Source: Candidatus Nealsonbacteria bacterium
GTDB taxonomy: Bacteria; Patescibacteriota; Minisyncoccia; Minisyncoccales; UBA6532
Assembly (NCBI GenBank): GCA_016186485.1
Contig: JACPLN010000003.1
Coordinates: 23,305 to 87,304 of the forward strand
Reading direction: 5' to 3'
Length of the DNA: 64,000 nt
Shown: one piece after another, positions 11,590-60,739 of the stretch
Position numbering within the stretch: the first letter of the stretch is position 1
Layout: every line of letters begins with the position of its first letter
Notes under the pieces: model-generated
Seen by the model: only the letters and a program-made list of their open reading frames with translations
What the model was told of the DNA's origin: nothing
Databases searched by the model: none
Program-made: the position numbers and the translations under genes

Positions 11590-13296
11590 TTATTCTTGGA
11601 TATAGTAAATAATTATTGAATTGCCGGCCTTTGCAACGGGGTCATGGTTTTTTAACCAAGATTGATAATAAGAAGAGTTCTGGAACTGGGTTATTGATAT
11701 CGCTATCCAGCCCTTCGGTGTTTCTTCCAGATCTTTTGGATCCAGTTTCTTGTATTTGGCGCCAAGATAGTATTCCGGGTCTTCTCCGCCAAAATAATCC
11801 AAGCGCATCTCTTTGATATTATTTTCCTCAACGAATTTTACCAGCTTTTTAAAATCCTGGCCCCAATCGTAATTTGAATCTACGGCAATTTTATAGCCGT
11901 TTTTCGTTCCCCCGGCTAGCTCGTTGTAATACGGGATATAATCAGGAAAAGCTTTAACAGAAGAAAAAGAGTACCAGCCAAACAGAGAAACAACAAGCAA
12001 CAAAAATGCGGGTTTCAAAGAAAAAGAAATTTTAGAATACAGTTTTTTTATCCCAAAAATGGCAAGCATGTAGACAAACGGCAACGTTGGCAGCAAATGC
12101 CTTATGCCTATATTTAGGTTTCCAGAAAGAGCAACCAGCCAATAAATCACAATAAACAGAAAAAGAGCAAAAATATCAAAATTATCTTTCAGCCAGTCTT
12201 TTAGTTTTGCTTTCCATAAAAACCCAATTATTGCCAATACGGAAAGGAAGTGCAGGGCCAAGGGTATCTTTAAAAGATAGATTATCGGAAAATAGTAGTG
12301 CCAGCCGGACGAGGAAATATTTCCCAAAAAGTAAACTGTATTCCCAAAGCCAACTCTTTGAACGGCCATTAACGCACCTTTTAAGTATTGGCCTAGCGGC
12401 CTTAAAATTGGTTTATCCGCCATCCATACGGTTAAATTTTTAACTGGCGTTAAAGGATTTGGAGCAAGGTGAAACTTCGTGTCAGAAAGCTGTTTTTCGG
12501 GAGGGTAATTAGCGGTATGAAAAGAGTAAACCGGCCAAATAACAAAAATCGTTCCTATTAATACTGCTGTTATTCCCAGGAATAAGTGCCGGCGGAGTTT
12601 TTTAGAAAAAACAATCGGATACAAAACGGTTATGGTGGCAAAAAACGGTATTAATAAAACAAGAGAAAACTTTAACAGCATTGCTATTCCAAACGATAGT
12701 CCGGCAAGAACAATATTTATTTTTTTCTGGCTTTTTAATAGTTTTAGCCAAAAATAGGTAGACAAAACAGCTCCTAGGCTAGCTCCGACATCCGTGGTTA
12801 CCAGCCTGCCCATGGCAATAAAAGTGGGGGAGAATGAAAAAAGAAATAAAACAGCAAGGCTCATCCAATTCCCGCCAAGCTCCTTTGCCCATTTAAACAA
12901 CATCCATCCCAGGAGCATCAAGACAAAAAGCATCGGCAGTCTTGCAAAGAATATAATTTTTTGGGGGTTGTTTCCGGAGCGAAAAATGAAATCTCTGCCA
13001 AAATTAAACTGAACCCACCATTGGGGATTTTCTTTTTGGACCCAGTTTTGGTTTTCCGAAGGAAAGTTTAGGTTTAAAAAAAGAAGGGGAAGGGCAGCTA
13101 AATCTTTAATCAATGGAGGGTGCTCCGGGTTTAGTCTGTAATCTTTTTGGGTTAAATAAGAATAGCCGGCTCCAATATGCGCCAATTCATCAAAAGTCAG
13201 GGAATCTTCTTTCATGCTTAAAAAAGCCGCGCTAAACATTATCACCAGTAAAATCAGAGCTAAAATATTAGTTGCTCGGTTAGAGATGAAAAGCAT
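11590..13296 (-). CDS. GT39/GT83-family (PMT/ArnT-like) polyprenyl-phosphate-dependent glycosyltransferase
   Basis: N-terminal 'FDELAHIGAGYSY...PEHPPL' motif region and multiple TM helices. Confidence 0.7.
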   Translation of the reverse strand: MLFISNRATNILALILLVIMFSAAFLSMKEDSLTFDELAHIGAGYSYLTQKDYRLNPEHPPLIKDLAALPLLFLNLNFPSENQNWVQKENPQWWVQFNFGRDFIFRSGNNPQKIIFFARLPMLFVLMLLGWMLFKWAKELGGNWMSLAVLFLFSFSPTFIAMGRLVTTDVGASLGAVLSTYFWLKLLKSQKKINIVLAGLSFGIAMLLKFSLVLLIPFFATITVLYPIVFSKKLRRHLFLGITAVLIGTIFVIWPVYSFHTANYPPEKQLSDTKFHLAPNPLTPVKNLTVWMADKPILRPLGQYLKGALMAVQRVGFGNTVYFLGNISSSGWHYYFPIIYLLKIPLALHFLSVLAIIGFLWKAKLKDWLKDNFDIFALFLFIVIYWLVALSGNLNIGIRHLLPTLPFVYMLAIFGIKKLYSKISFSLKPAFLLLVVSLFGWYSFSSVKAFPDYIPYYNELAGGTKNGYKIAVDSNYDWGQDFKKLVKFVEENNIKEMRLDYFGGEDPEYYLGAKYKKLDPKDLEETPKGWIAISITQFQNSSYYQSWLKNHDPVAKAGNSIIIYYIQE

Positions 13297-50197: not shown

Positions 50198-50239
50198 TCT
50201 AACCTAATACTATTATAAAAGTAAACCGTGTCAATCTAG

Positions 50240-50310
50240 TTCCGGGGCTTGGATTCGAACCAAGATTCCATGCTCCAGAGGCATGTGGCCTACCTTTAGC
50301 CGATCCCGGA
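50240..50310 (-). tRNA. tRNA-Gln (anticodon CUG), U1-A72, no encoded CCA
   Basis: Cloverleaf with D-arm GGCU-AAAGGUA-GGCC, anticodon stem CAUGC/GCAUG with loop CUCUGGA, and T-arm CUUGG-UUCGAAU-CCAAG. Confidence 0.8.
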
Positions 50311-50340: not shown

Positions 50341-51249
50341 TTACACCTTAAGGTAGCTTCTGATTGATATTAAGCTAGAAATTGAACCCAACAGAAACCC
50401 TGCACCAAACTGAATTAATAGAACCAAAGCAATATTATTGAAGAAGAATTGATGAATATTAAGCCCTGGCAATAAAACATTGAGTTTCGGTCCCATAAAA
50501 TAAAGGGTTACCCCAAACATAGCGACCGTTATAAAAGCGGCCAGGCCCCCGGATATTATCCCTTGGATTAAAAACGGACCTCTGATAAACCAGTTGGAAA
50601 CCCCGACTAGACGCATTATTTCAATCTCTTCTTTAGAACTGTAAATTGTATTCCTTATTTGGTTAAAAGCAAGGCCGACGGCCACCGCCGATAAAGCCAT
50701 AATTGTTATTATGACAATGGTGTTGATGCTCAAAACTATGGAGTTTAACCTTTCAATAACCGGCTTTCTCTGAAGAAAATCTATTTTTTCAACCAAGTTA
50801 TAAAATGCGCTTCTCTGTATTGATGAAGCCACTCTGGAATAAGAAGACGCATCAAATGTTTGGATATTAAGCGAGGCCAAAAATGGATTGGTTCCAATTT
50901 CTTCTAAAGATTCGGTAATGGCTTTATTTCCCTTGTGCCTTTCGGAAAACTTTAGGTAAGCGTCTTCTTTGGAAACAAAGTCCACTTTTTTAATTTCGGG
51001 CATCTTGGTTATAGAATTCTTAATGTCAAGGATTTCCGTTTCTGGGGTACCGTCTTTGAAATAAACGGCTATATCCACTCTTTCTTGAAGTTCGGTTGTT
51101 AAAAATCTCGTTGTTTCCTGAAAAAGAAATAAAAAGGTTATAAGAGAAATTGTAAGCACCAAAACAAAAACCGTGGCTATAGCCATGCCAACCTGCCTTT
51201 TTAAATTAAGCCATCCCCAATGAAACGCTCTTTTTAAAGAAGTAGTCAT
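50341..51249 (-). CDS. ftsX: Cell-division ABC-transporter permease FtsX
   Basis: 4-TM FtsX topology with a large periplasmic loop, adjacent to ftsE. Confidence 0.85.
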   Translation of the reverse strand: MTTSLKRAFHWGWLNLKRQVGMAIATVFVLVLTISLITFLFLFQETTRFLTTELQERVDIAVYFKDGTPETEILDIKNSITKMPEIKKVDFVSKEDAYLKFSERHKGNKAITESLEEIGTNPFLASLNIQTFDASSYSRVASSIQRSAFYNLVEKIDFLQRKPVIERLNSIVLSINTIVIITIMALSAVAVGLAFNQIRNTIYSSKEEIEIMRLVGVSNWFIRGPFLIQGIISGGLAAFITVAMFGVTLYFMGPKLNVLLPGLNIHQFFFNNIALVLLIQFGAGFLLGSISSLISIRSYLKV

Positions 51250-51279: not shown

Positions 51280-51972
51280 TTAAATGATGAATTTACCCTC
51301 CTTTTCATCTCTAATAATTCTTCCTTCTTCCAAAGTAATCACCCTTTGGTTAAGATTATTTATGATTTCTCTGTTATGGGTCGCCAGAATCACGGTAGTT
51401 CCAATTTGATGGACTTTTTGCAAAAGCCGGATAATGTCTTGAGTGTGATAAGGATCAAGGTTGCCGGTCGGTTCGTCTGCCAAAAGCACCTCGGGACGGG
51501 AAACCAGAGCTCTGGCTAAAGCCAATCTTTGTTTTTCTCCGCCGGAAAGCTCGGCCGGGAAATTATTGTTTCTGTGAGACAGCTCTACTATATTTAAAAC
51601 CTCGGCTGCGTCTTTCTCTATTTGGTCGTCTCCAATTCCCAGCGCCTGAAGAACAAAAACAATATTCTCCAAAGCGGTTTTGGTTTGCAAAAGCTTGTAA
51701 TCCTGGAATACGGCTCCAATTCGCCTTCTTAATAACGGCAGATGCGAGCTTTTAATGGTTCTTACGTCCTCTCCGTTAAAAAAAACGTCTCCCAGATTGG
51801 GCTTTTCCTGACCCAAAATAATTTTCAGCAAAGTTGTTTTCCCCGCCCCCGATCTTCCAACCAAAGAAACAAACTCTCCTCTTTCAATATCAAAAGATAC
51901 GTTATCTATGGCCTTGATTGGACCCGAAAGCGAATTATATATTTTTGTAACGCCTTTAAAAGATATTATCAT
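51280..51972 (-). CDS. ftsE: Cell-division ATP-binding protein FtsE
   Basis: 'GRSGAGKTTLLKII', 'LSGGEKQRLALARAL' and 'LLADEPTGNLD'. Confidence 0.9.
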   Translation of the reverse strand: MIISFKGVTKIYNSLSGPIKAIDNVSFDIERGEFVSLVGRSGAGKTTLLKIILGQEKPNLGDVFFNGEDVRTIKSSHLPLLRRRIGAVFQDYKLLQTKTALENIVFVLQALGIGDDQIEKDAAEVLNIVELSHRNNNFPAELSGGEKQRLALARALVSRPEVLLADEPTGNLDPYHTQDIIRLLQKVHQIGTTVILATHNREIINNLNQRVITLEEGRIIRDEKEGKFII

Positions 51973-53070: not shown

Positions 53071-53577
53071 CTAAAGATTTCTTAGAGCTCTTAATGGTTT
53101 TTCGTGATTTGAATGAACCGCTATTATCCTTTCCATCGGAACATCATCAAACATTTTTTGCCACAATATTTTTTGTTTTTTGTTAAATTCCGATTGAAGA
53201 ACCCAGTCTGAATCCCGATCTGATTCTTGGATAATAAAGCCTTTCTTTGCCAAGAATTTCCTTTCTATGGAAAGAAACCCTTTTTCATTAATAATGGCTA
53301 TCACTCCTGCCAGACCAGATTGGCCAAATAGTCTTTCCCAGGCTGCAAGCTTATTTTTATTTAGCTTGCTTTTTATAAGCTGTCCTCCGCTATCGGTCAG
53401 GTCCAAAAGAGTTAGGATGCAAACAGAAGGCATAAGATTAGCGAAAATAATGTGCCAAGCCCGATGATCTTTGCTCGACCACATAAAACAATCATCCGAT
53501 CTTCCTCCCCTGGAACGCGGAACAACATGATGCCTAGACCCGTGGTAAGACCTTTTGTTTGAACCCTTATTGCCCAA
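53071..53577 (-). CDS. HNH-endonuclease-domain protein (N-terminal HNH motif plus an unknown C-terminal domain)
   Basis: 'HHVVPRSRGGRSDD...DHRAWH' resembles the HNH betabeta-alpha-Me core. Confidence 0.55.
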   Translation of the reverse strand: MGNKGSNKRSYHGSRHHVVPRSRGGRSDDCFMWSSKDHRAWHIIFANLMPSVCILTLLDLTDSGGQLIKSKLNKNKLAAWERLFGQSGLAGVIAIINEKGFLSIERKFLAKKGFIIQESDRDSDWVLQSEFNKKQKILWQKMFDDVPMERIIAVHSNHEKPLRALRNL

Positions 53578-53646
53578 TCGCTATTTCACCCACGTCAAAA
53601 AACCCCTTTTTGTATTTTCCCTAAAATCAAAAAAAAGTCAAATTAG

Positions 53647-54309
53647 TTAGAGCAACTTGAAATTGTTTATCACCAGGCCGAACTTATACCCAAGATATTC
53701 TGCGGCCTTGCGGCAATAAACCATTCTCTCTGTGAAAATTTCAAAATACTCCATTACTGGAACAAAATTGGTGTCAATTTTAAGATTCAAGGTGATTATT
53801 TTCTTTTGCTTGTTAAAGCCGAGCTTTGTGGATTTAACGGCGAAATTTACTCTGTTATGAATATCCTCCTTTATTATTTTCATATCTTTTATTGTCACCC
53901 TTGACCTTCTAACGTCGGATTTATCTGCCAAGACCACTACCGCTGAAATAGGATCTGAAAACTCCATGTCAAATTTATCGTGATTGGCTATGGCCTGCAT
54001 TAAAAGAGCCATTTCCGCCGGGGAGAAATCTTTTGCAAAAGTCTGGTAGAAAATAAGGGCGCCAAAATAGTTGTGGTATCCCCTGCTCAAGAAATTAGCG
54101 AAGTCGTGGGCAAATCCGGCAATTGCCGACAATTCCTGCTCTTTTTCTGCAAGGCCTATTTCCATGGCTATTGTTCTTGCCCTATCCGACACTAAGCTGG
54201 CATGATCAAAACCATGATTGGTATATTTTAAATTATGCATCCTCGTTTCAGTCCGCTTTATGAACTCTGAAAGATAAGGATTAGATTTTAACTGATTTAG
54301 GGTTATCAT
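53647..54309 (-). CDS. HD-domain phosphohydrolase
   Basis: 'HGFDHASLV...IAGFAHDFANF...ANHD' His/Asp ladder. Confidence 0.6.
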   Translation of the reverse strand: MITLNQLKSNPYLSEFIKRTETRMHNLKYTNHGFDHASLVSDRARTIAMEIGLAEKEQELSAIAGFAHDFANFLSRGYHNYFGALIFYQTFAKDFSPAEMALLMQAIANHDKFDMEFSDPISAVVVLADKSDVRRSRVTIKDMKIIKEDIHNRVNFAVKSTKLGFNKQKKIITLNLKIDTNFVPVMEYFEIFTERMVYCRKAAEYLGYKFGLVINNFKLL

Positions 54310-54317
54310 ACTTAAAA

Positions 54318-55085
54318 TTACTCAATTTCATACTGAAGAGTTACGCTCACCTTTATTTCCTGGGAGCCGGGCTCAACAGCCGGAGCGCTTGAACCTCCTT
54401 TTGCGCTGAATTCATACAAAGGATAGGAATACGGAGTTATCCCTCCTTCCTGTATTGATAACAGTTTTCCCAAGCGGAACCCGCCGGCTTTAGCCGTTGC
54501 CTTTGCTTTTTCTTTTGCCAAAGCGATTGCTTCGGCCCTAGCCCGATTTTCAAGTTCTGTTCTATCTTCTATCGTAAAAGCGAGATTAGAAACGGCATTT
54601 GCTCCGCGATTTACCACTTCGGATATTATTTCTCCAACAATGGAAAAATCCCTAATTTTTACCTCTACTGCTTGGGTTACGGTATATCCTACTATGGTTG
54701 GCGGAAGGCAATCTCCCCCCGCTTCCGGACAGCTATAATATTTATAGCGAGGAGTAATCAGGTATGACTGGGTTTTGATGTCCTTGCTTTCAATGCTCTT
54801 TGACTTTAAAAATTCAATTGCCTGGTTCGCTTTCAATGTATTTTCTTCCTGAAGCGCTTTAAGGCCCAAGCCCCCCTCTGTCACTACGCTAAAACTGAAG
54901 GTGGCCAAATCAGGTATTGCCGCAACTTTTCCCTCTCCTGAAACAGAAAAGCTCCTGAAGGACGATGGTTCGGTTGAAGCGTCGTAGCTTCTTACAAAGC
55001 TGACGGCGGAATAAGAAAAAGATATTAGAGCTAAAATGACCGAAGCCCACAAGGCGTCTTTAATTTTGTTTTTAATGTTTTCCAT
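54318..55085 (-). CDS. SIMPL-domain (DUF541) secreted protein
   Basis: N-terminal TM/signal and C-terminal 'VEPGSQEIKVSVTLQYEIE', typical of SIMPL proteins. Confidence 0.7.
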   Translation of the reverse strand: MENIKNKIKDALWASVILALISFSYSAVSFVRSYDASTEPSSFRSFSVSGEGKVAAIPDLATFSFSVVTEGGLGLKALQEENTLKANQAIEFLKSKSIESKDIKTQSYLITPRYKYYSCPEAGGDCLPPTIVGYTVTQAVEVKIRDFSIVGEIISEVVNRGANAVSNLAFTIEDRTELENRARAEAIALAKEKAKATAKAGGFRLGKLLSIQEGGITPYSYPLYEFSAKGGSSAPAVEPGSQEIKVSVTLQYEIE

Positions 55086-55148
55086 GTTTTAATTTTACCA
55101 TAAAAATAAAAGCAATAAAAAGTGGCGCGAACCAGCACCACATTAAGT

Positions 55149-55637
55149 TTAGATTTTATTCAATTTCATTTCTTTCGGTATTTTTGAGGCTATAAGAATT
55201 AATAATCCCGCCCCAGCAAATGGATTATCCGAATCTCGACCAAGATAAATTGCCGCGTTTCTTTTCTTGAACGCATTGTACAGCTCGGCTAAGAATTCCC
55301 CGTACTCATTTGAAACAATTATACCGAAAGCGCCGTCGCACCAGGCTGCGGCAATCTCTTTTGTTTGCGAATCAAGTTCAGGGTTTCTCCACGCCAATTC
55401 TTCCCCATGCCCATAAATGCTGAATACAAAGCAAGAATGCGTTTTTCTTTTTTCAAAGAAAAACAGTTCTTTGTTAAATTTTGTTATTCTTCCTCCTTTG
55501 ATGCCCAATGCTGTTTTTGTTTTTTCTATTCCCCATTCGTGTTCTGCGCAAAAATCCCAGCCAAGATTTACCCCGATAATTCTTTCCCCGTTTCTTACAA
55601 GATACGGATTCCTCCCTCTCCTAATTCCCATTTCCAA
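55149..55637 (-). CDS. Hypothetical protein (island gene 1)
   Basis: The ORF has its own downstream hairpin-U terminator, GTGGTGC...GCGCCAC-TTTTT, at about 55113-55133. Confidence 0.4.
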   Translation of the reverse strand: MEMGIRRGRNPYLVRNGERIIGVNLGWDFCAEHEWGIEKTKTALGIKGGRITKFNKELFFFEKRKTHSCFVFSIYGHGEELAWRNPELDSQTKEIAAAWCDGAFGIIVSNEYGEFLAELYNAFKKRNAAIYLGRDSDNPFAGAGLLILIASKIPKEMKLNKI

Positions 55638-55743
55638 TCCTCTCCTCTATTAATGAGCTAAAACCATTATTGCAAGTATAAATAGTAAGTCAAGCAAATA
55701 AAAAAAGTGTCGGGTTTCCCCTGACACTAATTCTTACTACTTT

Positions 55744-56016
55744 TCATTTTTCTACCTCTGGAATATAGTAATATCCTTCGCTGTCTTTTTTGTAAAACCT
55801 CCCCTTTCTCGGGATTTCTATTTTGGTGTGATATTCAATGATTTTCCCATCTTCTTTTATTACTATCGTTTCTTTGTGTTTTCCGTGTCCGCAACAACAA
55901 GCTAAAGTTTTTATTCCGCTTTCATTCAAGATTTTGATAAAATTCTTCATGCATTTATCTATTCTTAGCTTCCTTCCGTTTAATTCAAATAATATTGACA
56001 TTCTTTGCTTACACAT
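55744..56016 (-). CDS. Hypothetical small Cys-rich protein ('LACCCGHGKH')
   Basis: 90-aa ORF with its own terminator at about 55690-55720. Confidence 0.35.
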   Translation of the reverse strand: MCKQRMSILFELNGRKLRIDKCMKNFIKILNESGIKTLACCCGHGKHKETIVIKEDGKIIEYHTKIEIPRKGRFYKKDSEGYYYIPEVEK

Positions 56017-56126
56017 TTTTAATCTACTAATAAAAGACTACTTCAAACAAATAGCCTGTCAACCCTCAGCTGGGCATGTTTACATTCCGGATTTGAGTTT
56101 TAGGAAAAAAAAATTGGTTGAAGTTT

Positions 56127-56681
56127 TCAGGCCCGTTGTTTAAGGTATTTCCACACCTCTAGCAACTTTCCTGAAACTGCAACCTCAACGAATTTCTTCC
56201 ATGGTATAAGGAAGGGATATGGTGGAGCGGAATCTTGTGTGAAACCAAGAGCTTTTAGAAGTTTGATTAACCCACTCGTTCCAGTATCGAAAATGACGGT
56301 CTTTGGCCTTGGCAGAACCCGACCAGCAAACATCTCTTCAACCTCGTTCTTTGTTAGAGGGGCTCTGTAATCATCACTCATTATACTATCGTATGCCTCT
56401 ATCGCAGCAATCCATGACTCCATACGTCTTAATTTTGTTTCGTAGGGTACCTCTCTTCCTCTTTTGGCACCGAGGAACATATGCATCCGCGCAACATAAG
56501 GATTATTAAAGATATCATGCCAGTCTAATAGAAAATCCTCATGCCAGTCTAAACCCTCATTTAGGTGTGTGGTTATTCCTCCGTAGACTGCCAGTGACCA
56601 TACTTTCAGATTCCATACCCTTCTCTTGCTCCTCCAGCTGAATTTTACTTCAGCCCCAATCGTCTTGATCTGATGATCCAT
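56127..56681 (-). CDS. Hypothetical protein (island gene 3)
   Basis: 184-aa ORF. The upstream region has a strong promoter TTGACA-17-TATCAT and a GGAGG ribosome-binding site. Confidence 0.45.
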   Translation of the reverse strand: MDHQIKTIGAEVKFSWRSKRRVWNLKVWSLAVYGGITTHLNEGLDWHEDFLLDWHDIFNNPYVARMHMFLGAKRGREVPYETKLRRMESWIAAIEAYDSIMSDDYRAPLTKNEVEEMFAGRVLPRPKTVIFDTGTSGLIKLLKALGFTQDSAPPYPFLIPWKKFVEVAVSGKLLEVWKYLKQRA

Positions 56682-56803
56682 TTCCCCTTATCTCGCCTCC
56701 GCTTAAATGATAACATAATATTTATATTTTGTCAATCACTAATCATTGAAAATAAATAAATTTTTAGTGCTCTAATTTATTGAAATAAAAAGGCGGATTG
56801 AGG

Positions 56804-57253
56804 TTATCGCACCGCTAAAAATCTGGAAATAGCATTGAATACATTTTCTTCATGCCATTCTTCTTCTCCGTATCGCAAACGAATCTCTATAAAGCAGATT
56901 CCTTTTGTGCTGTATTTTTTTTCCAACTCTTCAGTCCGCCAATTTTTTATCTGAAGCGGCAAAATCAGACCGTCATCAAAACTCAATATAATGTCTTTTC
57001 CTTCTTTATCTTCCTGACTTCCTTGCGTTATCCATTCAATATTTGTTATTATTCTCCTTCCCGGAAACTTTTTACCGATTGTTTTAAAGTGCTCTAAGAT
57101 TTGTACGGCTCTTTTTTCGGCGCTTCTGCCTCTTTCTGTTCGTTCCCTACCAACCTGTCTTTGTGTTTTGCGCACCATTTTTTGTTGGCCACGAATCCAC
57201 CAATTCCAATTAAAGTCCTTCCTGCCTCCCCCACGATGCCCATAACGACCCAT
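56804..57253 (-). CDS. Hypothetical protein with an Arg/Gly-rich N-terminus and a possible PD-(D/E)xK-like 'FDDG...LQIK' motif
   Basis: ORF with a promoter-like TTGACA-17-TATTTT upstream. The nuclease-motif assignment is weak. Confidence 0.4.
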   Translation of the reverse strand: MGRYGHRGGGRKDFNWNWWIRGQQKMVRKTQRQVGRERTERGRSAEKRAVQILEHFKTIGKKFPGRRIITNIEWITQGSQEDKEGKDIILSFDDGLILPLQIKNWRTEELEKKYSTKGICFIEIRLRYGEEEWHEENVFNAISRFLAVR

Positions 57254-57396
57254 TTTTTCCGTTTATAAAATAACAAATTTTAAAAGAATTGTCAAATAAG
57301 AAACGGTGCATTATCTCTATATCTTCCTTGATATCAAATTTTGCAGCGGGCGCTGGCCGACATTAAAACCTGTTTAAGAATAAAAAAGGCGGTTCG

Positions 57397-57762
57397 TCAA
57401 TCCATCCACAGGATTGAACCAATGTATCCAATCATGATTCCCATAATAACGAGTACTGCTTCTGCCCAATATGCGAAATTAAGATTAAATAACAGGTGAC
57501 CCATGACTACAAGCACTCCGATCATTATAAGCCAAATCAATCCCGGCAGTTGAAGCGTTGGCCCTGCTCCTCTTCTCATGTTTTCTAGGATGACAAGAAC
57601 AAAAATAAACACGATGCCTACTAATGGACCAAGCCAACCTTGATTCATATAGGTAAAGAGAGTCAGGATGGTTACTAATCCTAATATTGGTACGCCAAAG
57701 ATCCAGAAAGCAATAAGGTGATCATTCCCCATAATTTCTCTCCTCCAAAGAACTAAATTCAT
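57397..57762 (-). CDS. Small integral membrane protein (4 TM helices)
   Basis: ORF with a strong terminator hairpin overlapping its stop (GGTTCAATCC...GGATTGAcgAACC followed by U6). Confidence 0.45.
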   Translation of the reverse strand: MNLVLWRREIMGNDHLIAFWIFGVPILGLVTILTLFTYMNQGWLGPLVGIVFIFVLVILENMRRGAGPTLQLPGLIWLIMIGVLVVMGHLLFNLNFAYWAEAVLVIMGIMIGYIGSILWMD

Positions 57763-57894
57763 AGTAGATGCCTAAAGAGTTTTGTCAATAAATATTGTCT
57801 ACGTTCTATCCCGAAGCGCAACAGGAAACAAAAACCGCCCGGCGATGGGTGGTTTTTTGGGCGTCTCGGTCACCCGAAACGTGCCCTAGACAGG

Positions 57895-58155
57895 TTATCT
57901 ACCTTCAAGATAGTGCTTTAATTGTTTCTTAAGGTATCCGCGGCCGGAGCCACTCTTAAGAAATTTTTCTCTCCCCAAAGCATCATTTTTATCAAGATAT
58001 GCTTCAAAATAAATTGGTTTCCAGTCCTCTTTGCGACTTGTAGTTCTGGCTCCATCTCCGGCATTATGGCGCTTGAGGCGTTCAGTCAAATCTTCAGTCA
58101 TTCCGATATACCAAGATTTATCACTTTGGTTATCAAGAAGATAGACGTAATACAT
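57895..58155 (-). CDS. GIY-YIG nuclease-domain protein (stand-alone, 86 aa)
   Basis: 'YYVYLLDNQSDKSWYIGMTEDLTERLKRHN' is the canonical GIY...YIG...R..H.N block. Confidence 0.8.
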   Translation of the reverse strand: MYYVYLLDNQSDKSWYIGMTEDLTERLKRHNAGDGARTTSRKEDWKPIYFEAYLDKNDALGREKFLKSGSGRGYLKKQLKHYLEGR

Positions 58156-58185
58156 ATGAGTAGTTGGCGGTCGCGTAAAGGACCT

Positions 58186-58228
58186 GGCTCACTACGCTCG
58201 CCATGTCCCACGCGACTCACGTAAAATT
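58186..58228. repeat. Degenerate inverted copy of the 43-bp repeat unit
   Basis: The reverse complement aligns to the unit at both ends (GAATTTTACG... and ...GCGAnCnTAGTGAGC). Confidence 0.6.
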
Positions 58229-58265
58229 CTTATACAATTATTATATCAAAATTAAAATAATTTCA

Positions 58266-58410
58266 TTTTACGCGGCTTGCCACGTGATGAGCGAACATAG
58301 TGAGCGAATTTTACGCGGCTTGCCACGTGATGAGCGAACATAGTGAGCGAATTTTACGCGGCTTGCCACGTGATGAGCGAACATAGTGAGCGAATTTTAC
58401 GTGGCAGGGG
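58266..58410. repeat. Perfect 43-bp tandem direct repeat x3, plus a partial 4th copy
   Basis: The unit is TTTTACGCGGCTTGCCACGTGATGAGCGAACATAGTGAGCGAA. It is identical at 58266, 58309 and 58352. Each copy contains a CACGTG palindrome and an internal GAGCGAA...GAGCGAA sub-repeat about 11 bp apart. Confidence 0.9.
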
Positions 58411-58479
58411 CACCCTGAGTTGCACAGGGATCAATGGTTTTGGAGACCATTATTCTGCTATTAAACTATGCCCCCATAA

Positions 58480-58818
58480 TTATTCGTTCCAATCGCGCCT
58501 TTTGTCTTTTTTAGCGGTTTTATTGGAAAAACCTTTTGGATGTCTTTTTTTTAGCTTTTTTATATTCTCTTTCATTACATCTCCTAGGTTCCAGCCAAAA
58601 AAACTGCAAATCATAGCTATATACCACATCGTGTCCCCCAAATTCTCTCTTAATCCCTTTTTTTGGTCGTCTCCGTGAGAAAATGTCTTTTTAATGCAAC
58701 CCGCTACATCGCCGGCTTCTCCGGCAATACCCAAACCCCAAGTTAATATTTCTTTCTCTTTATTCTTGAATTTCTTTGCGGTCTTTTTGCAAAACTTTTG
58801 ATATTGACTTGGATTCAT
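58480..58818 (-). CDS. MazG-like nucleoside-triphosphate pyrophosphohydrolase-domain protein (small)
   Basis: 'WGLGIAGEAGDVAGCIKK...LGDTMWYIAMICSFFGWNLGDVMKENIKKL' is the MazG/EEnn helix pair pattern. Confidence 0.65.
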   Translation of the reverse strand: MNPSQYQKFCKKTAKKFKNKEKEILTWGLGIAGEAGDVAGCIKKTFSHGDDQKKGLRENLGDTMWYIAMICSFFGWNLGDVMKENIKKLKKRHPKGFSNKTAKKDKRRDWNE

Positions 58819-58832
58819 AATAAGCGTATAAT
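58804..58832 (+). promoter_or_regulatory. Sigma70-like promoter TTGACT-17nt-TATAAT
   Basis: Near-consensus hexamers about 15 nt upstream of a small + strand ORF. Confidence 0.5.
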
Positions 58833-58847
58833 TTAAAAGGTAAGAAA

Positions 58848-59009
58848 ATGGAATCAGGAAAGATAAGATATAGATGCGGGCACGAAAGCGAACTAATTAT
58901 TCTTGATGACAATCCGCTTTCTATTACGGCTTATGAGGAATGGAGAACATCAGTAGGATTTGATGGCGATAGAAGCAAATGCTTTAACTGTTTCTGTTCT
59001 CGTCCTTAG
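58848..59009 (+). CDS. Small Cys/His-rich (zinc-ribbon-like) protein, 53 aa, not in the ORF track
   Basis: ATG with an AAAGG ribosome-binding site. Sequence 'RCGHE...CFNCFCSRP'. It is bracketed by a consensus promoter and an intrinsic terminator. Confidence 0.4.
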   Translation: MESGKIRYRCGHESELIILDDNPLSITAYEEWRTSVGFDGDRSKCFNCFCSRP

Positions 59010-59046
59010 GGGTAAAAGAAAAAGCTTTTCTTTACCCCATTTTTAT
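59009..59046 (+). terminator. Rho-independent terminator (GGGGTAAA-aGAAAA-agc-TTTTC-TTTACCCC followed by a U-tract)
   Basis: Strong hairpin followed by ATTTTTATTT on the + strand only. Confidence 0.6.
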
Positions 59047-59088
59047 TTAACCGGGGTAATCACCCTCTCTGGTTCTAAATATGCGCGC

Positions 59089-59253
59089 CTAACGCTTGCT
59101 TTCTTTATGCAAGGTATGTTTCCGGCACCAGTTGCAAAACTTTTTCAATTCCAACCTACGTTCCACTTTGCCCTTGGACTTCTTAACAAAATAATTAACT
59201 CTTTTGCAGGATTCGCAAGCCAGTTTTAAAAACGGTTTTTTCTTTTTTGCCAT
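59089..59253 (-). CDS. rpmG: 50S ribosomal protein L33 (54 aa), missed by the ORF track
   Basis: Translation MAKKKKPFLKLACESCKRVNYFVKKSKGKVERRLELKKFCNWCRKHTLHKESKR. It has the C..C...C..C zinc ribbon and 'LELKKFC..CRKHTLHKE', the L33 signature. Confidence 0.85.
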   Translation of the reverse strand: MAKKKKPFLKLACESCKRVNYFVKKSKGKVERRLELKKFCNWCRKHTLHKESKR

Positions 59254-59294
59254 ATTCTTTTAATTTAAAAATTAAAAATGAAAATTTGATTCTG

Positions 59295-59367
59295 AGCCCA
59301 CGCGCAGATTTGCACTGCGGACCTCGTCTTTACCAAAGACGTGCTCTTCTGCCTGAGCTACGTGGGC
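59295..59367 (-). tRNA. tRNA-Thr (anticodon GGU) with a non-canonical T-loop UGCAAAU
   Basis: Acceptor GCCCACG/CGUGGGC, D-arm GCUC-AGGCAGAA-GAGC, anticodon stem CGUCU/AGACG with loop UUGGUAA, T-stem CGCAG/CUGCG. No CCA encoded. Confidence 0.75.
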
Positions 59368-59390
59368 ACATTGGTGGGCCAAGTCAGACT

Positions 59391-59477
59391 TGGTGGGCAG
59401 GGAGGGACTTGCACCCCCGAAGTCCTTACGGACGTCAGATTTACAGTCTGATGCGTTAGCTGCTCCGCCACCTGCCC
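59391..59477 (-). tRNA. tRNA-Tyr (anticodon GUA), long variable arm, T-loop UGCAAGU, CCA encoded
   Basis: Acceptor GGGCAGG/CCUGCCC, D-arm GCG-GAGCAGCUAA-CGC, anticodon stem UCAGA/UCUGA with loop CUGUAAA, variable stem GUCC/GGAC. Confidence 0.75.
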
Positions 59478-60256: not shown

Positions 60257-60739
60257 TTAGAACAGACCGAGATCTTTGTTGTCTTTCTTCTGGGAAAGCG
60301 TGTTCCTGGGATTAAATGCCAATTTATCATTGCTTTTCCTGATCAAGATCTTTGTATCCTTATCTTTAAGAATAACCCTTATCGCCTTTTTGCAGTCAAA
60401 CTCGGTAAAAATCCCCTTCCACTTCTCTTTCTTTCCTTCCGAGATTTTTTTTGCCAGCCACGTAAAGGAAACGTCCTTTCCGCCGGTTATCTCCGGAAGC
60501 TGGCAAAGAATATCTTTGAAAAATTCTATCTCATCTTTGAACTCTTCTTTGAATTCCGAAGAAGAGCCATTCATATTAAGCAAACACTGAAAAGCTTTCT
60601 CAAAATCACGAATCGTTCTGATTCTTGATAAATTCCTTAATTTCTGGATTTCATCTTTGAAAGCATCCTCGCCGCCCTCTGCGTTCTTTGAAAATTCAGC
60701 CACGATCTCCGCCGCTCTCTCTCTAATATCCGGATTCAT
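60257..60739 (-). CDS. Hypothetical protein occupying the position where rimM normally sits (between the KH-protein gene and trmD)
   Basis: 160-aa acidic protein with no PRC-barrel or RimM-like N-terminus recognisable. Confidence 0.4.
   Translation of the reverse strand: MNPDIRERAAEIVAEFSKNAEGGEDAFKDEIQKLRNLSRIRTIRDFEKAFQCLLNMNGSSSEFKEEFKDEIEFFKDILCQLPEITGGKDVSFTWLAKKISEGKKEKWKGIFTEFDCKKAIRVILKDKDTKILIRKSNDKLAFNPRNTLSQKKDNKDLGLF

Follow-up and report, generated by a model that had tools for sequence, protein, structure and literature searches.

A probable flexible genomic islet at a tRNA-linked site in a Candidatus Nealsonbacteria chromosome

Results

Gene content and layout of the locus

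The locus forms part of a Candidatus Nealsonbacteria (CPR/Patescibacteria) chromosome, analysed here as a single stretch of 64 kb (the window). Its features, anchors included, are listed below in descending order of position.

59089-59477, minus: upper anchor tRNA-Tyr/tRNA-Thr/rpmG, the end of a conserved rnc-rpsP-KH-trmD-tRNA-rpmG block
59391-59477, minus: tRNA-Tyr (ARAGORN)
59294-59367, minus: tRNA-Thr (ARAGORN)
59089-59253, minus: rpmG (Pfam Ribosomal_L33, 1.1e-17)
58848-59009, plus: 53-aa Cys-containing ORF (ORF listing)
58480-58818, minus: MazG-like NTP pyrophosphohydrolase, 112 aa (Pfam MazG PF03819, 2.3e-09)
58402-58475, minus: tRNA-Trp (CCA), CCA end encoded (ARAGORN; Rfam, 55.9 bits)
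58185-58405, minus: palindromic repeat structure (TRF, inverted arms, RNA fold)
57895-58155, minus: GIY-YIG nuclease-domain protein, 86 aa, UPF0213/YhbQ type (Pfam PF01541, 1.3e-16)
57397-57762, minus: membrane protein, ORF of 121 aa (ORF listing)
56804-57253, minus: 149-aa orphan, basic Arg/Gly-rich N-terminus, no recognisable family
56127-56681, minus: 184-aa protein from an unnamed family of about 180 aa (motifs LDWHD, ARMHMY, LPRP)
55744-56016, minus: 90-aa Cys-rich protein with a CCCGHG motif (phrog_12958, 1.5e-9)
55149-55637, minus: 162-aa protein (160 aa from ATG), N-terminal two thirds of a very rare 248-267 aa family
53071-55085, minus: rest of the variable interval (SIMPL, HD and 168-aa genes), none at the site in relatives
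54318-55085, minus: SIMPL (PF04402)
53647-54309, minus: HD-domain protein (faint precomputed match only)
53071-53577, minus: HNH-like protein, 168 aa
50239-52871, minus: lower anchor prfB-ftsE-ftsX-tRNA-Gln, shared with the related loci L110 and L133
51972-52871, minus: prfB
51280-51972, minus: ftsE
50341-51249, minus: ftsX
50239-50310, minus: tRNA-Gln

All eight ORFs of a first-pass annotation, which had described an 'island' of singly transcribed genes of phage or defence type, were found at the same coordinates and on the same strands, and the one-gene transcription-unit layout that it described is also borne out. The window contains one run of nine consecutive genes of at most 184 aa each, and this is found here; the median intergenic gap is 110 nt, compared with 25 nt in the rest of the window (Mann-Whitney p=0.0014). 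In addition, six of the 43 strong sigma-70-like sites in the 64 kb (at least 10 of 12 consensus positions matched) fall inside the interval, five of them intergenic, each upstream of an ORF and on the correct strand. Terminator-like hairpins were found by a scan 3' of the 162-aa (55122-55141), 90-aa (55706-55728) and GIY-YIG (57834-57846) genes, and a hairpin with a T-run (about 59011-59045, read by eye in the sequence) follows the plus-strand ORF; the private terminators proposed earlier for the 149-aa and membrane genes are not convincing (stems of about 4 bp by eye, none detected by the scan). Both promoters and terminators denote consensus matches only. The layout is statistically unusual for the window.

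The in-frame coding score is above zero for seven of the eight ORFs (-0.7 for the 53-aa ORF), and the scores of the islet genes are inside the range of the other small genes in the window. The compositional and codon-usage deviation for which the first-pass annotation had advised looking is absent: relative to the rest of the window, neither the tetranucleotide composition of the islet (z of about 0.3) nor its codon pattern differs.

The conserved block from trmD to tRNA-Trp

Gene order was compared in 79 + 80 related loci. Among the 80 trmD loci, the KH gene is detected in 77, rpmG, adjoining trmD, in 62, rpsP in 51 and rnc in 47. Beyond the common rnc-rpsP-KH-trmD block, rpmG and tRNA-Trp are both present in 53 of 79 related genomes, with tRNA-Trp coming after rpmG in 53 related loci, and tRNA-Trp is the final conserved element and the synteny breakpoint. 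This tRNA gene, recognised by both ARAGORN and Rfam, had been overlooked even though it lies within the proposed island, which it splits in two. The island boundaries need to be redrawn, with the MazG-like gene and the 53-aa ORF inside the conserved tRNA-rpmG-tRNA block and the variable interval extending from tRNA-Trp to prfB.

The MazG-like protein, in which the motifs EAGD and LGDTMWY are readable, matches phrog_229 at 2.5e-28. At least 22 relatives have its gene in the slot from rpmG to tRNA-Trp, at 65-87% identity (the position is kept, at 65-86%, in L010, L018, L060, L061 and L051), and at least 17 of 163 metagenome relatives have rpmG upstream and tRNA-Trp downstream; identity to viral homologues tops out at about 45%. 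The stop codon precedes the 5' end of tRNA-Trp by 4 nt, and the two genes are for this reason almost certainly co-transcribed. On sequence comparison the gene is resident, lineage-conserved and outside the gene flux, with a product that is most likely a house-cleaning NTP pyrophosphohydrolase. Its inclusion in the island has to be withdrawn, since its place and sequence are conserved in many relatives.

The 53-aa ORF sits in a 270-nt spacer unique to this genome, the distance from rpmG to the MazG-like gene being merely tens of nt in close relatives, and no homologue was found in any fetched related locus. It is preceded by a promoter-like site (11/12, 58804-58832). Its protein-coding status is doubtful, and the region could be a small RNA. 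A further unique ORF, of 160 aa, is located between KH and trmD.

Comparison of the variable interval with relatives

For the genes between GIY-YIG and the 168-aa gene, these two included, tblastn and profile searches found no counterpart at the site in any relative, and none of the islet genes other than MazG occurs there in the 79 + 80 related loci. The earlier view of the locus as accessory, non-core content is thus upheld with the exception of MazG, the conserved position of which runs counter to it. The SIMPL, HD and 168-aa genes, previously taken for a housekeeping flank, are likewise not conserved at the site in any relative (0 of 159 related loci within 10 kb of trmD or MazG). The usual downstream genes in relatives are def, pcm, mltG, rplJ and rplL (read from cluster sequences), none of which is present in the whole 64-kb window.

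One related metagenome population (three contigs) has both anchors too, and the genes that it carries between them are unrelated to those described here. In L110 and L133, rpmG-MazG-tRNA-Trp is followed 5.4-6.8 kb further on by prfB (55% identity) and ftsE (54%), with ftsX read in L110 and tRNA-Gln detected in L133. These two contigs are 98% identical and differ by a 1.5-kb two-gene indel within the equivalent interval. Inserts of more than 300 nt separate rpmG from tRNA-Trp in 18 of 53 relatives and tRNA-Tyr from tRNA-Thr in 11 of 59. The gene next past tRNA-Trp falls into 14 different clusters and is unique in 15 additional loci, and in L104 a duplicated tRNA-Trp flanks an insert. The genes inserted in relatives include a HicA toxin with a neighbour read as HicB, an N6/N4 DNA methylase with a trypsin-like protease, DUF5674, a holin-family protein, a cluster read as LAGLIDADG-like, and GIY-YIG. 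These comparisons support the site as a recurrent insertion point in relatives. Even the nearest relatives are not close (trmD at most 75% identical, prfB 55%), and the differences in gene content could for that reason stem from long divergence instead of an active hot spot in this genome.

The GIY-YIG gene and the 43-bp repeat array

The 43-bp array, which had been described as abutting the island, is real and sits inside it, with 3.3 perfect units at 58265-58405 that begin in the CCA end of tRNA-Trp (TRF, 98% matches, score 275). Three exact copies of the unit are present, compared with 0 in shuffles. An AT-rich spacer of 36 nt separates the array from a degenerate inverted copy of the unit (about 58185-58229) directly upstream of the GIY-YIG start, and the predicted RNA fold has an energy of -86.3 kcal/mol (z = -5.0). 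Independent Logan contigs end within the array, and the unit was not found in viral contigs or in any fetched locus.

The GIY-YIG domain, like the MazG domain, was correctly recognised in the first-pass annotation, and the closest solved structure is that of a UPF0213 protein (PDB 1zg2, 2e-07). A homologue directly follows tRNA-Trp in L010 and others adjoin tRNA-Tyr, Thr or Asn; six of nine homologues lie within 300 nt of a tRNA gene, compared with a random mean of 1.7. There are also weak matches to homing-endonuclease PHROGs. The gene is probably selfish or ex-selfish and associated with tRNA flanks, and together with the palindromic, amplified repeat at the tRNA 3' end it most likely constitutes a selfish or ex-selfish element that favours such flanks.

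The remaining genes of the interval

The membrane protein, with about four hydrophobic helices (read by eye), has a weak match to phrog_29212 (0.0039) as its sole family match and no homologue in the relatives searched. Its true start is probably the second ATG at 57732, which has a GGAGGAG Shine-Dalgarno sequence, yields 111 aa, as in the Logan gene call, and fits the promoter-like site at 57788-57761. The 149-aa protein, with a promoter-like site at 57295-57267, is the only one of four proteins said to have no recognisable family for which this holds. Its secondary-structure order (alpha-beta-beta-beta-alpha-beta) and residues E46, D87 and Q101-x-K103 would fit a minimal PD-(D/E)xK nuclease, for which it is an unproven candidate; the motif proposed earlier was not confirmed.

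The other three proteins do have relatives. The 90-aa protein has a core of about 45 aa in common with small hypothetical proteins encoded by rV5-like and Campylobacter phages (tblastn, 115 phage records, E of about 3e-5, 42-47% identity over residues 15-62). In the single phage looked at for gene context, the matching gene is one of a string of small genes that all carry the annotation 'hypothetical protein'. The gene of the 90-aa protein may form one transcript with the 184-aa gene. For the 162-aa protein (promoter-like site at 55693-55666) the homologues number just two, P0003 (45% identity, 248 aa) and P0004 (31%, 267 aa). Each of them continues at its C-terminus for about 90 aa beyond the part present here, and the islet gene is probably a truncated remnant; the gene context of P0003 is unrelated to the islet. 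For the 184-aa protein, which is preceded by an extended promoter-like site (11/12, 56735-56707), a full HMMER scan returned 62 cluster representatives; the family is spread over CPR-like chromosomes amid normal genes. Its fold is weakly GNAT-like, and no viral relatives of it were found. Homologues of the 184-aa and 162-aa proteins occur in unrelated contexts without other islet genes; in L086 a 184-family gene is 2.3 kb from a SIMPL gene, which hints that at least this pair could be an old vertical neighbourhood.

This last observation bears on the proposal that the interval holds ordinary genes that are specific to the lineage and were passed on by vertical descent in a fast-evolving CPR genome, and that it looks like an island only through distance to the sampled relatives (closest trmD 74-75% identical) and rearrangement at tRNA-Trp. 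Native codon and tetranucleotide usage and the chromosomal spread of the 184-aa family are in keeping with it, as is the unique ORF between KH and trmD, a hint that orphan genes are dispersed across the genome. We consider this explanation rather unlikely, however, in view of the different inserts in the same gaps of dozens of relatives, the within-population indel in the equivalent interval, an organisation significantly unlike that of the rest of the window, and the presence of a truncated gene and of amplified repeats beside a GIY-YIG gene.

Alternatively, the interval may descend from an integrative element or prophage that inserted at the 3' end of tRNA-Trp and of which the integrase and most other genes have since disappeared. 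The 43-bp repeats would then be att-related leftovers, and the GIY-YIG, Cys-rich and HNH-like genes would be phage genes that survived. The location immediately 3' of a tRNA gene, with the array starting in its CCA end, would fit such a history, as would the phage homologues of the 90-aa protein, the PHROG matches of the GIY-YIG protein, the L104 duplication and a layout like that of phage morons. A remnant of this kind is nevertheless unlikely: no integrase, recombinase, structural or replication gene is found in 52.8-58.4 kb, there is neither a further copy of the tRNA-Trp 3' end nor a flanking direct repeat, the repeat unit is missing from viral contigs and all fetched loci, the 184-aa fold lacks viral relatives and the composition is native. 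The same observations speak against the first-pass label 'phage-derived' for the interval as a whole.

The companion label, 'defence cassette', would make the locus a new anti-phage or toxin-antitoxin system in which the GNAT-like 184-aa protein, the membrane protein and MazG act together with a nuclease, namely GIY-YIG, the 149-aa protein or both. The HicA and methylase genes of relatives show that cargo of the defence type does reach this site. No PADLOC model passes, though (the best, PDC-S14 at 2e-4, covers the generic GIY-YIG core only), the islet genes co-occur in no other locus searched, the 149-aa protein, being an orphan, can have no conserved partnership, each gene has a promoter-like site to itself instead of sharing one in an operon, and MazG is conserved independently of all the others. 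A defence system is accordingly judged very improbable.

Discussion

The interval is probably best understood as a flexible genomic islet at a tRNA-linked hot spot, and not as a single functional system. Its upper bound is rnc-rpsP-KH-trmD-tRNA-Tyr-tRNA-Thr-rpmG-(MazG)-tRNA-Trp and its lower bound prfB-ftsE-ftsX-tRNA-Gln; between tRNA-Trp (58402) and prfB (52871), unrelated small genes may have been gained singly by insertion, deletion and illegitimate recombination. The units, of putative function, are the GIY-YIG gene with its repeat, the membrane, 149-aa orphan and 184-aa genes, the phage-like 90-aa gene, the truncated 162-aa gene, and the SIMPL, HD and HNH-like genes. Such gene-by-gene accumulation would explain the individual promoter-like sites, the several private terminators and the wide spacers. 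A recent foreign origin is not demonstrated, because composition, codon pattern and coding scores are native; slow lineage-specific turnover would be expected to leave the same native composition. The locus would then be an ordinary flexible region, a tRNA-cluster site at which related CPR bacteria keep exchanging genes.

Comparison with known systems

The MazG-like protein resembles other members of its family, phage MazG (phrog_229) included, in its single MazG domain above the Pfam cut-off, but belongs to a CPR-resident clade with a fixed place between rpmG and tRNA-Trp (65-87% identity within CPR genomes, about 45% with viral copies), and differs from the two-domain, mazEF-linked MazG of E. 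coli. The GIY-YIG protein shares with free-standing homing endonucleases and UPF0213 proteins (YhbQ/BH0048) a catalytic domain that passes the Pfam threshold and a patchy distribution beside conserved tRNA genes, as predicted for a selfish gene. True homing endonucleases, in contrast, carry a DNA-binding domain that the 86-aa protein lacks; the 43-bp palindromic array is no known feature of either group. Compared with phage morons and early gene strings, the islet has similarly short genes that tend to have sigma-70-like promoters of their own, several also with their own terminators, and a 90-aa gene with phage homologues, but it lies outside any phage genome, has no phage genes for structure or replication, and consists mostly of genes without phage homologues.

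Genomic islands have been described before in Patescibacteria (PMC12455944). The islet resembles tRNA-linked islets and islands of this kind in its conserved anchors, its content varying between related genomes at one site, the tRNA at its boundary, a cargo in which small hypothetical genes occur with TA modules, methylases and nucleases, and an indel between near-identical genomes in the equivalent interval. It differs from them in having no integrase, att duplication or compositional signature, and in being very small (about 5.5 kb) and seemingly built up singly instead of from one acquired element.

Architecture of the small-gene interval

The window is part of a metagenome-assembled genome of Candidatus Nealsonbacteria (CPR/Patescibacteria). 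All eight ORFs that a first-pass annotation had listed at about 55-59 kb, and had read as a candidate phage-derived or defence cassette, are present, and the self matches of three island proteins carry the NCBI locus tags HYW70_01415 to HYW70_01430. The features are arranged as follows (window positions).

60172-59504, minus strand: trmD
Following trmD, minus strand: tRNA-Tyr, then tRNA-Thr, then rpmG (rpmG at 59253-59089)
58848-59009, plus strand: 53-aa ORF
58818-58480, minus strand: MazG-like gene, 112 aa
58475-58402, minus strand: tRNA-Trp(CCA) with encoded CCA end, absent from the first-pass list
58405-58265: tandem array of 3.3 copies of a 43-bp unit, beginning in the CCA end of tRNA-Trp
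58155-57895, minus strand: GIY-YIG gene, 86 aa
57762/57732-57397, minus strand: membrane protein
Next in minus-strand order: the 149-, 184-, 90- and 162-aa proteins
Below the 162-aa gene, minus strand: SIMPL, an HD protein, a 168-aa HNH-like protein, prfB-ftsE-ftsX and tRNA-Gln

The unusual organisation that first drew attention to this interval is both real and measurable. Nine consecutive genes, none longer than 184 aa, form the only such run in the 64-kb window, and the median intergenic gap is 110 nt, compared with 25 nt elsewhere in the window (p = 0.0014). Six of the window's 43 strong sigma-70-like matches fall in the interval, five of these being intergenic, each on the correct strand and just upstream of an ORF. 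A scan finds terminator-like hairpins at the 3' end of the 162-aa, 90-aa and GIY-YIG genes, and a 3' hairpin was read in the sequence for the plus-strand 53-aa ORF; the signals originally proposed for the 149-aa and membrane protein genes are weak. Coding potential was calculated with a 3-periodic Markov model trained on the long genes of the window, and the in-frame scores of seven ORFs of the interval are positive and well above those of every other frame. The 53-aa ORF is doubtful as a protein gene because its coding score is -0.7.

Synteny breakpoint and extent of the variable unit

A TrmD scan of one genome per GTDB species provided 80 loci, mostly from Nealsonbacteria and their kin, which share the backbone order rnc-rpsP-KH-trmD-tRNA-Tyr-tRNA-Thr-rpmG-tRNA-Trp. 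The numbers of loci with each gene detected are 77 for KH, 62 for rpmG (beside trmD), 51 for rpsP and 47 for rnc, and in 53 of the 80 rpmG is followed by tRNA-Trp. Searches with tblastn and with profile HMMs built from gene clusters that recur among the relatives found no counterpart of the GIY-YIG, membrane, 149-, 184-, 90- or 162-aa proteins within 10 kb in the 80 trmD loci. The same holds for the SIMPL, HD and 168-aa proteins, so that the lower flank, previously described as housekeeping, is itself variable. The relatives' usual genes downstream of tRNA-Trp (read as def, pcm, mltG, rplJ and rplL) are found nowhere in the window; together with the missing counterparts, this marks tRNA-Trp as the exact point at which the conserved block ends and synteny breaks.

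An additional ORF of 160 aa (60257-60739, minus strand) lies between the KH-domain gene and trmD and is absent at that position in relatives, where the KH gene is usually found directly upstream of trmD (~400 nt start to start). With it, the conserved block has taken up a second orphan gene.

The lower limit of the variable region is illustrated by one related population, recovered in a metagenome scan with the MazG-like protein (contigs L110, L111 and L133; MazG 79% identical). Both L110 and L133 contain rpmG-MazG-tRNA-Trp and, 5.4-6.8 kb further on, prfB (55%) and ftsE (54%), with ftsX read in L110 and tRNA-Gln detected in L133. Nothing between these anchors is related to the window, the intervening genes encoding proteins of 570, 167, 238, 321 and 213 aa and one read as MurI. 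The presence of both anchors around unrelated genes indicates that the true variable unit extends from tRNA-Trp to prfB, ~58.4 to 52.9 kb. The boundaries initially drawn do not coincide with this unit: they take in the MazG-like gene and the 53-aa ORF, which are part of the conserved block, and leave out SIMPL, HD and the 168-aa protein, which are variable. Matches to ftsE in other relatives were rejected as lower anchors, these being paralogues (35-41% identity) read as MacB-type ABC ATPases; L110 and L133 (54-55%) provide the only credible orthologous anchors. The two contigs are 98% identical, yet they differ by a 1.5-kb indel of two genes inside the anchor-to-anchor interval.

The indel (L110 12409-13969 versus L133 12533-12601) encodes two proteins, a membrane protein of 167 aa and one of 238 aa, and is located just downstream of tRNA-Trp, adjoining a tandemly repeated coding segment at ~11920-12400.

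Gene turnover in relatives

Of 53 related loci, 18 have more than 300 nt inserted between rpmG and tRNA-Trp, and 11 of 59 have such an insert between tRNA-Tyr and tRNA-Thr; the first gene 3' of tRNA-Trp falls into 14 different clusters and is unique in a further 15 loci. Some of the inserted genes occur together, namely a HicA toxin and a neighbour read as HicB, an N6/N4 DNA methylase and a trypsin-like protease, and DUF5674 and its partner; others include GIY-YIG genes, a membrane protein of the holin family and a 200-aa cluster read as LAGLIDADG-like (no Pfam match). In one related locus, L104, tRNA-Trp is duplicated around a 254-aa gene. The duplicated unit that flanks this gene (L104 10762-12576, also in L105) comprises a gene of ~115-135 aa and tRNA-Trp, an arrangement that looks like an insertion with duplication of the target region. 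In one Nealsonbacteria relative (L025), four tandem rpmG-like tblastn matches of 69-84% identity occur ~850-3100 nt downstream of the trmD start, and may represent an array of rpmG paralogues or fragments.

The pattern taken to identify an islet, conserved anchors enclosing content that is not homologous among relatives, is seen here: the upper anchor is conserved over the 80 trmD loci, both anchors surround unrelated genes in L110 and L133, inserts occupy the rpmG/tRNA-Trp gap of many relatives, and the within-population indel falls in the equivalent interval. We regard it as probable that the interval is a flexible genomic islet, with accessory content acquired piecemeal at a recombination hot spot beside the conserved tRNA/ribosomal-protein block.

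The MazG-like gene is part of the conserved block

The family assignment of the MazG-like protein agrees with the original proposal (PF03819, 37.8 bits against a cut-off of 22, 2.3e-09; phrog_229, 2.5e-28), with no NCBIfam equivalog at threshold. The gene is situated between rpmG and tRNA-Trp in five species representatives (65-86% identity) and in at least 17 metagenome contigs. Across CPR genomes (loci L092-L171) the protein retains 65-87% identity, above that of TrmD, with 163 metagenome relatives, and its viral homologues reach only ~45%. Rather than cargo of an island, as first suggested, the gene is resident, conserved lineage content, which is the very observation that the first-pass annotation had named as speaking against its own interpretation.

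The MazG-like gene and tRNA-Trp are almost certainly co-transcribed in the window, judging from their spacing, because the stop codon of the former is 4 nt from the first base of the latter. In the sub-lineage with MazG fixed between rpmG and tRNA-Trp, this distance is 4-30 nt. MazG was rejected as a gene linked to tRNAs in general, since a tRNA occurs within 200 nt in just 13 of the 56 loci that could be evaluated; the association is a feature of the rpmG/tRNA-Trp sub-lineage.

Defence, phage and toxin-antitoxin interpretations

Assignment to a known defence system was taken to need a significant match to a signature protein together with the other required components in the same locus. A PADLOC-DB v2 scan of ten proteins (SIMPL and rpmG left out) returned no significant model and no complete or partly complete system. 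The best scores (PDC-S14, 2.2e-4; HEase/UzuA, ~0.015) fall on the 30-40 aa GIY-YIG core, and those for Cas5e/Cas3 are >0.01. A known defence system is rejected on these grounds, and the proposed defence cassette also fails in that its genes do not travel together elsewhere.

A prophage or integrative element would account for phage-related content such as the 90-aa Cys-rich protein, whose ~45-residue core recurs in small hypothetical proteins from 115 records of rV5-like and Campylobacter phages. Between 52.8 and 59.1 kb there is no integrase-like ORF and no Pfam or PHROG integrase match, and no phage structural genes were found in the interval. The 20-nt 3' end of tRNA-Trp, with up to three mismatches, occurs once in the window, giving no att duplication, and no direct repeats bounding the interval were found. 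Neither the 43-bp unit nor the 184-aa protein has a viral match, and on all these grounds such an element is rejected as the main explanation and retained only as a minor rival. Atypical composition or codon usage is the classical signature of recent horizontal transfer, and the interval does not carry it: tetranucleotide distances in 4-kb windows are normal (z = -0.45 to 0.36), GC3 is 0.36 versus 0.40, and the coding score is 2.1 versus 3.1 +/- 4.0 for other small genes. The deviation in k-mer and codon usage that was to be checked is consequently not seen, and a phage origin has neither an integrase, structural gene, att repeat nor compositional anomaly to support it.

The interval also lacks the adjacent, co-transcribed, often overlapping and co-occurring gene pair of a type II toxin-antitoxin system. 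Its neighbouring genes are 63-246 nt apart, and no pair was found travelling together elsewhere in the fetched loci, with the exception of the 184-aa family and SIMPL genes of L086. In this locus (L086 70-3527), a 184-family gene (44% identical) is followed 2.3 kb downstream by SIMPL (37% identical), with order and orientation as in the window; the pair, the only such case, hints at an old linkage of two genes of the interval.

Uncharacterised proteins of the interval

The 184-aa protein retrieves only itself in a word-indexed search, and an exhaustive HMMER scan identifies 62 cluster representatives, of which 45 reach E<=1e-10. The family (~180 aa; conserved motifs LDWHD, ARMHMY and LPRP) is found in varied chromosomal settings in CPR-like genomes, the other genes of the interval not being nearby except for SIMPL in L086. 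The AlphaFold2 model based on the family alignment is confident (pLDDT 93.4, pTM 0.89). No member has a Pfam or PDB sequence match, and the protein has no viral structural relative, a single-protein viral scan also being empty. Membership of the GNAT superfamily was taken to require the GNAT fold, the acetyl-CoA-binding motif (Q/RxxGxG/A) and a profile or structure that matches significantly.

The 149-aa protein is an orphan in the word-indexed search, and a model built from its sequence alone is of poor quality (pLDDT 50.8). The alpha-beta-beta-beta-alpha-beta order of its elements and residues E46, D87 and Q101-x-K103 would be compatible with a PD-(D/E)xK nuclease, for which the criteria are this core, a D...(D/E)xK motif and a profile or structural match; a fold search yielded no nuclease matches.

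The 162-aa protein belongs to an extremely rare family (three clusters among 5.8 billion proteins) and looks truncated, because its only two homologues, rare proteins of 248-267 aa, align with it over no more than their N-terminal two thirds. The gene (55149-55637, minus strand) is without the conserved ~90-aa C-terminal domain of these two known homologues, the motifs of which are ALSPRWK, FWLNP and GW.T..DL..WT.NKG.

The GIY-YIG gene and the 43-bp repeat

The 86-aa protein has a GIY-YIG nuclease domain, as first annotated (PF01541, 61.1 bits against a cut-off of 22.6; 1.3e-16), and is of the UPF0213 subgroup, matching PDB 1zg2 (UPF0213 BH0048) at 2e-07. The stretch from tRNA-Trp to this gene contains three perfect copies of the 43-bp unit, then 36 nt of AT-rich spacer, then a copy that is inverted and degenerate (58185-58229), and the RNA of 58185-58405 folds as a long hairpin (-86 kcal/mol, z = -5.0). 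Support for the array being real comes from independent Logan assemblies of this organism, which are interrupted within it. The unit was found neither in the rest of the window nor in 171 fetched loci or viral contigs, and apart from tRNA the array has no Rfam match at E<=1. The repeat structure could be a terminator, an operator or the ends of an element.

Of nine GIY-YIG homologues in the fetched loci, six have a tRNA gene (Trp, Tyr, Thr or Asn) no more than 300 nt away; random placement gave 1.7 on average and never more than six in 2000 trials. This excess over chance is suggestive only, because the loci were selected around tRNA clusters and the sample is biased in that direction. The small UPF0213-type genes adjoining tRNAs in the fetched CPR loci are:

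L010, 11620-11865
L093, 1617-1844
L148, 15635-15868
L165, 4685-4915
L150, L023 and L026

Alignment of four GIY-YIG loci revealed no conserved flanking non-coding element, and no paper linking UPF0213 and GIY-YIG was found in the literature. It is a long shot that the GIY-YIG gene and the palindromic, tandemly amplifiable 43-bp repeat form an undescribed minimal mobile cassette homing to tRNA flanks (Trp, Tyr, Thr, Asn) in CPR, whose nicking or cleavage would make tRNA clusters recombination hot spots where orphans such as the 149- and 184-aa genes accumulate. If the association with tRNA genes does reflect homing, it would explain why tRNA sites are recombinogenic.

Significance

The observations that singled out this interval were largely right and their interpretation half right: accessory content at a tRNA-linked site stands, and a defence or prophage origin finds no support. 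With the tempting 'defence island' reading corrected, the flexible islet offers a worked example of how streamlined CPR genomes keep a hot spot of gene turnover within an otherwise rigid tRNA/ribosomal-protein block. By-products of the analysis that may be of use are a confident fold model for an unnamed ~180-aa CPR protein family and the rpmG-MazG-tRNA-Trp arrangement conserved over a CPR sub-lineage. Current understanding of defence systems and of CPR biology is unchanged by these results. Genomic islands are well documented in Patescibacteria (PMC12455944), and the islet adds to this already known kind of region.
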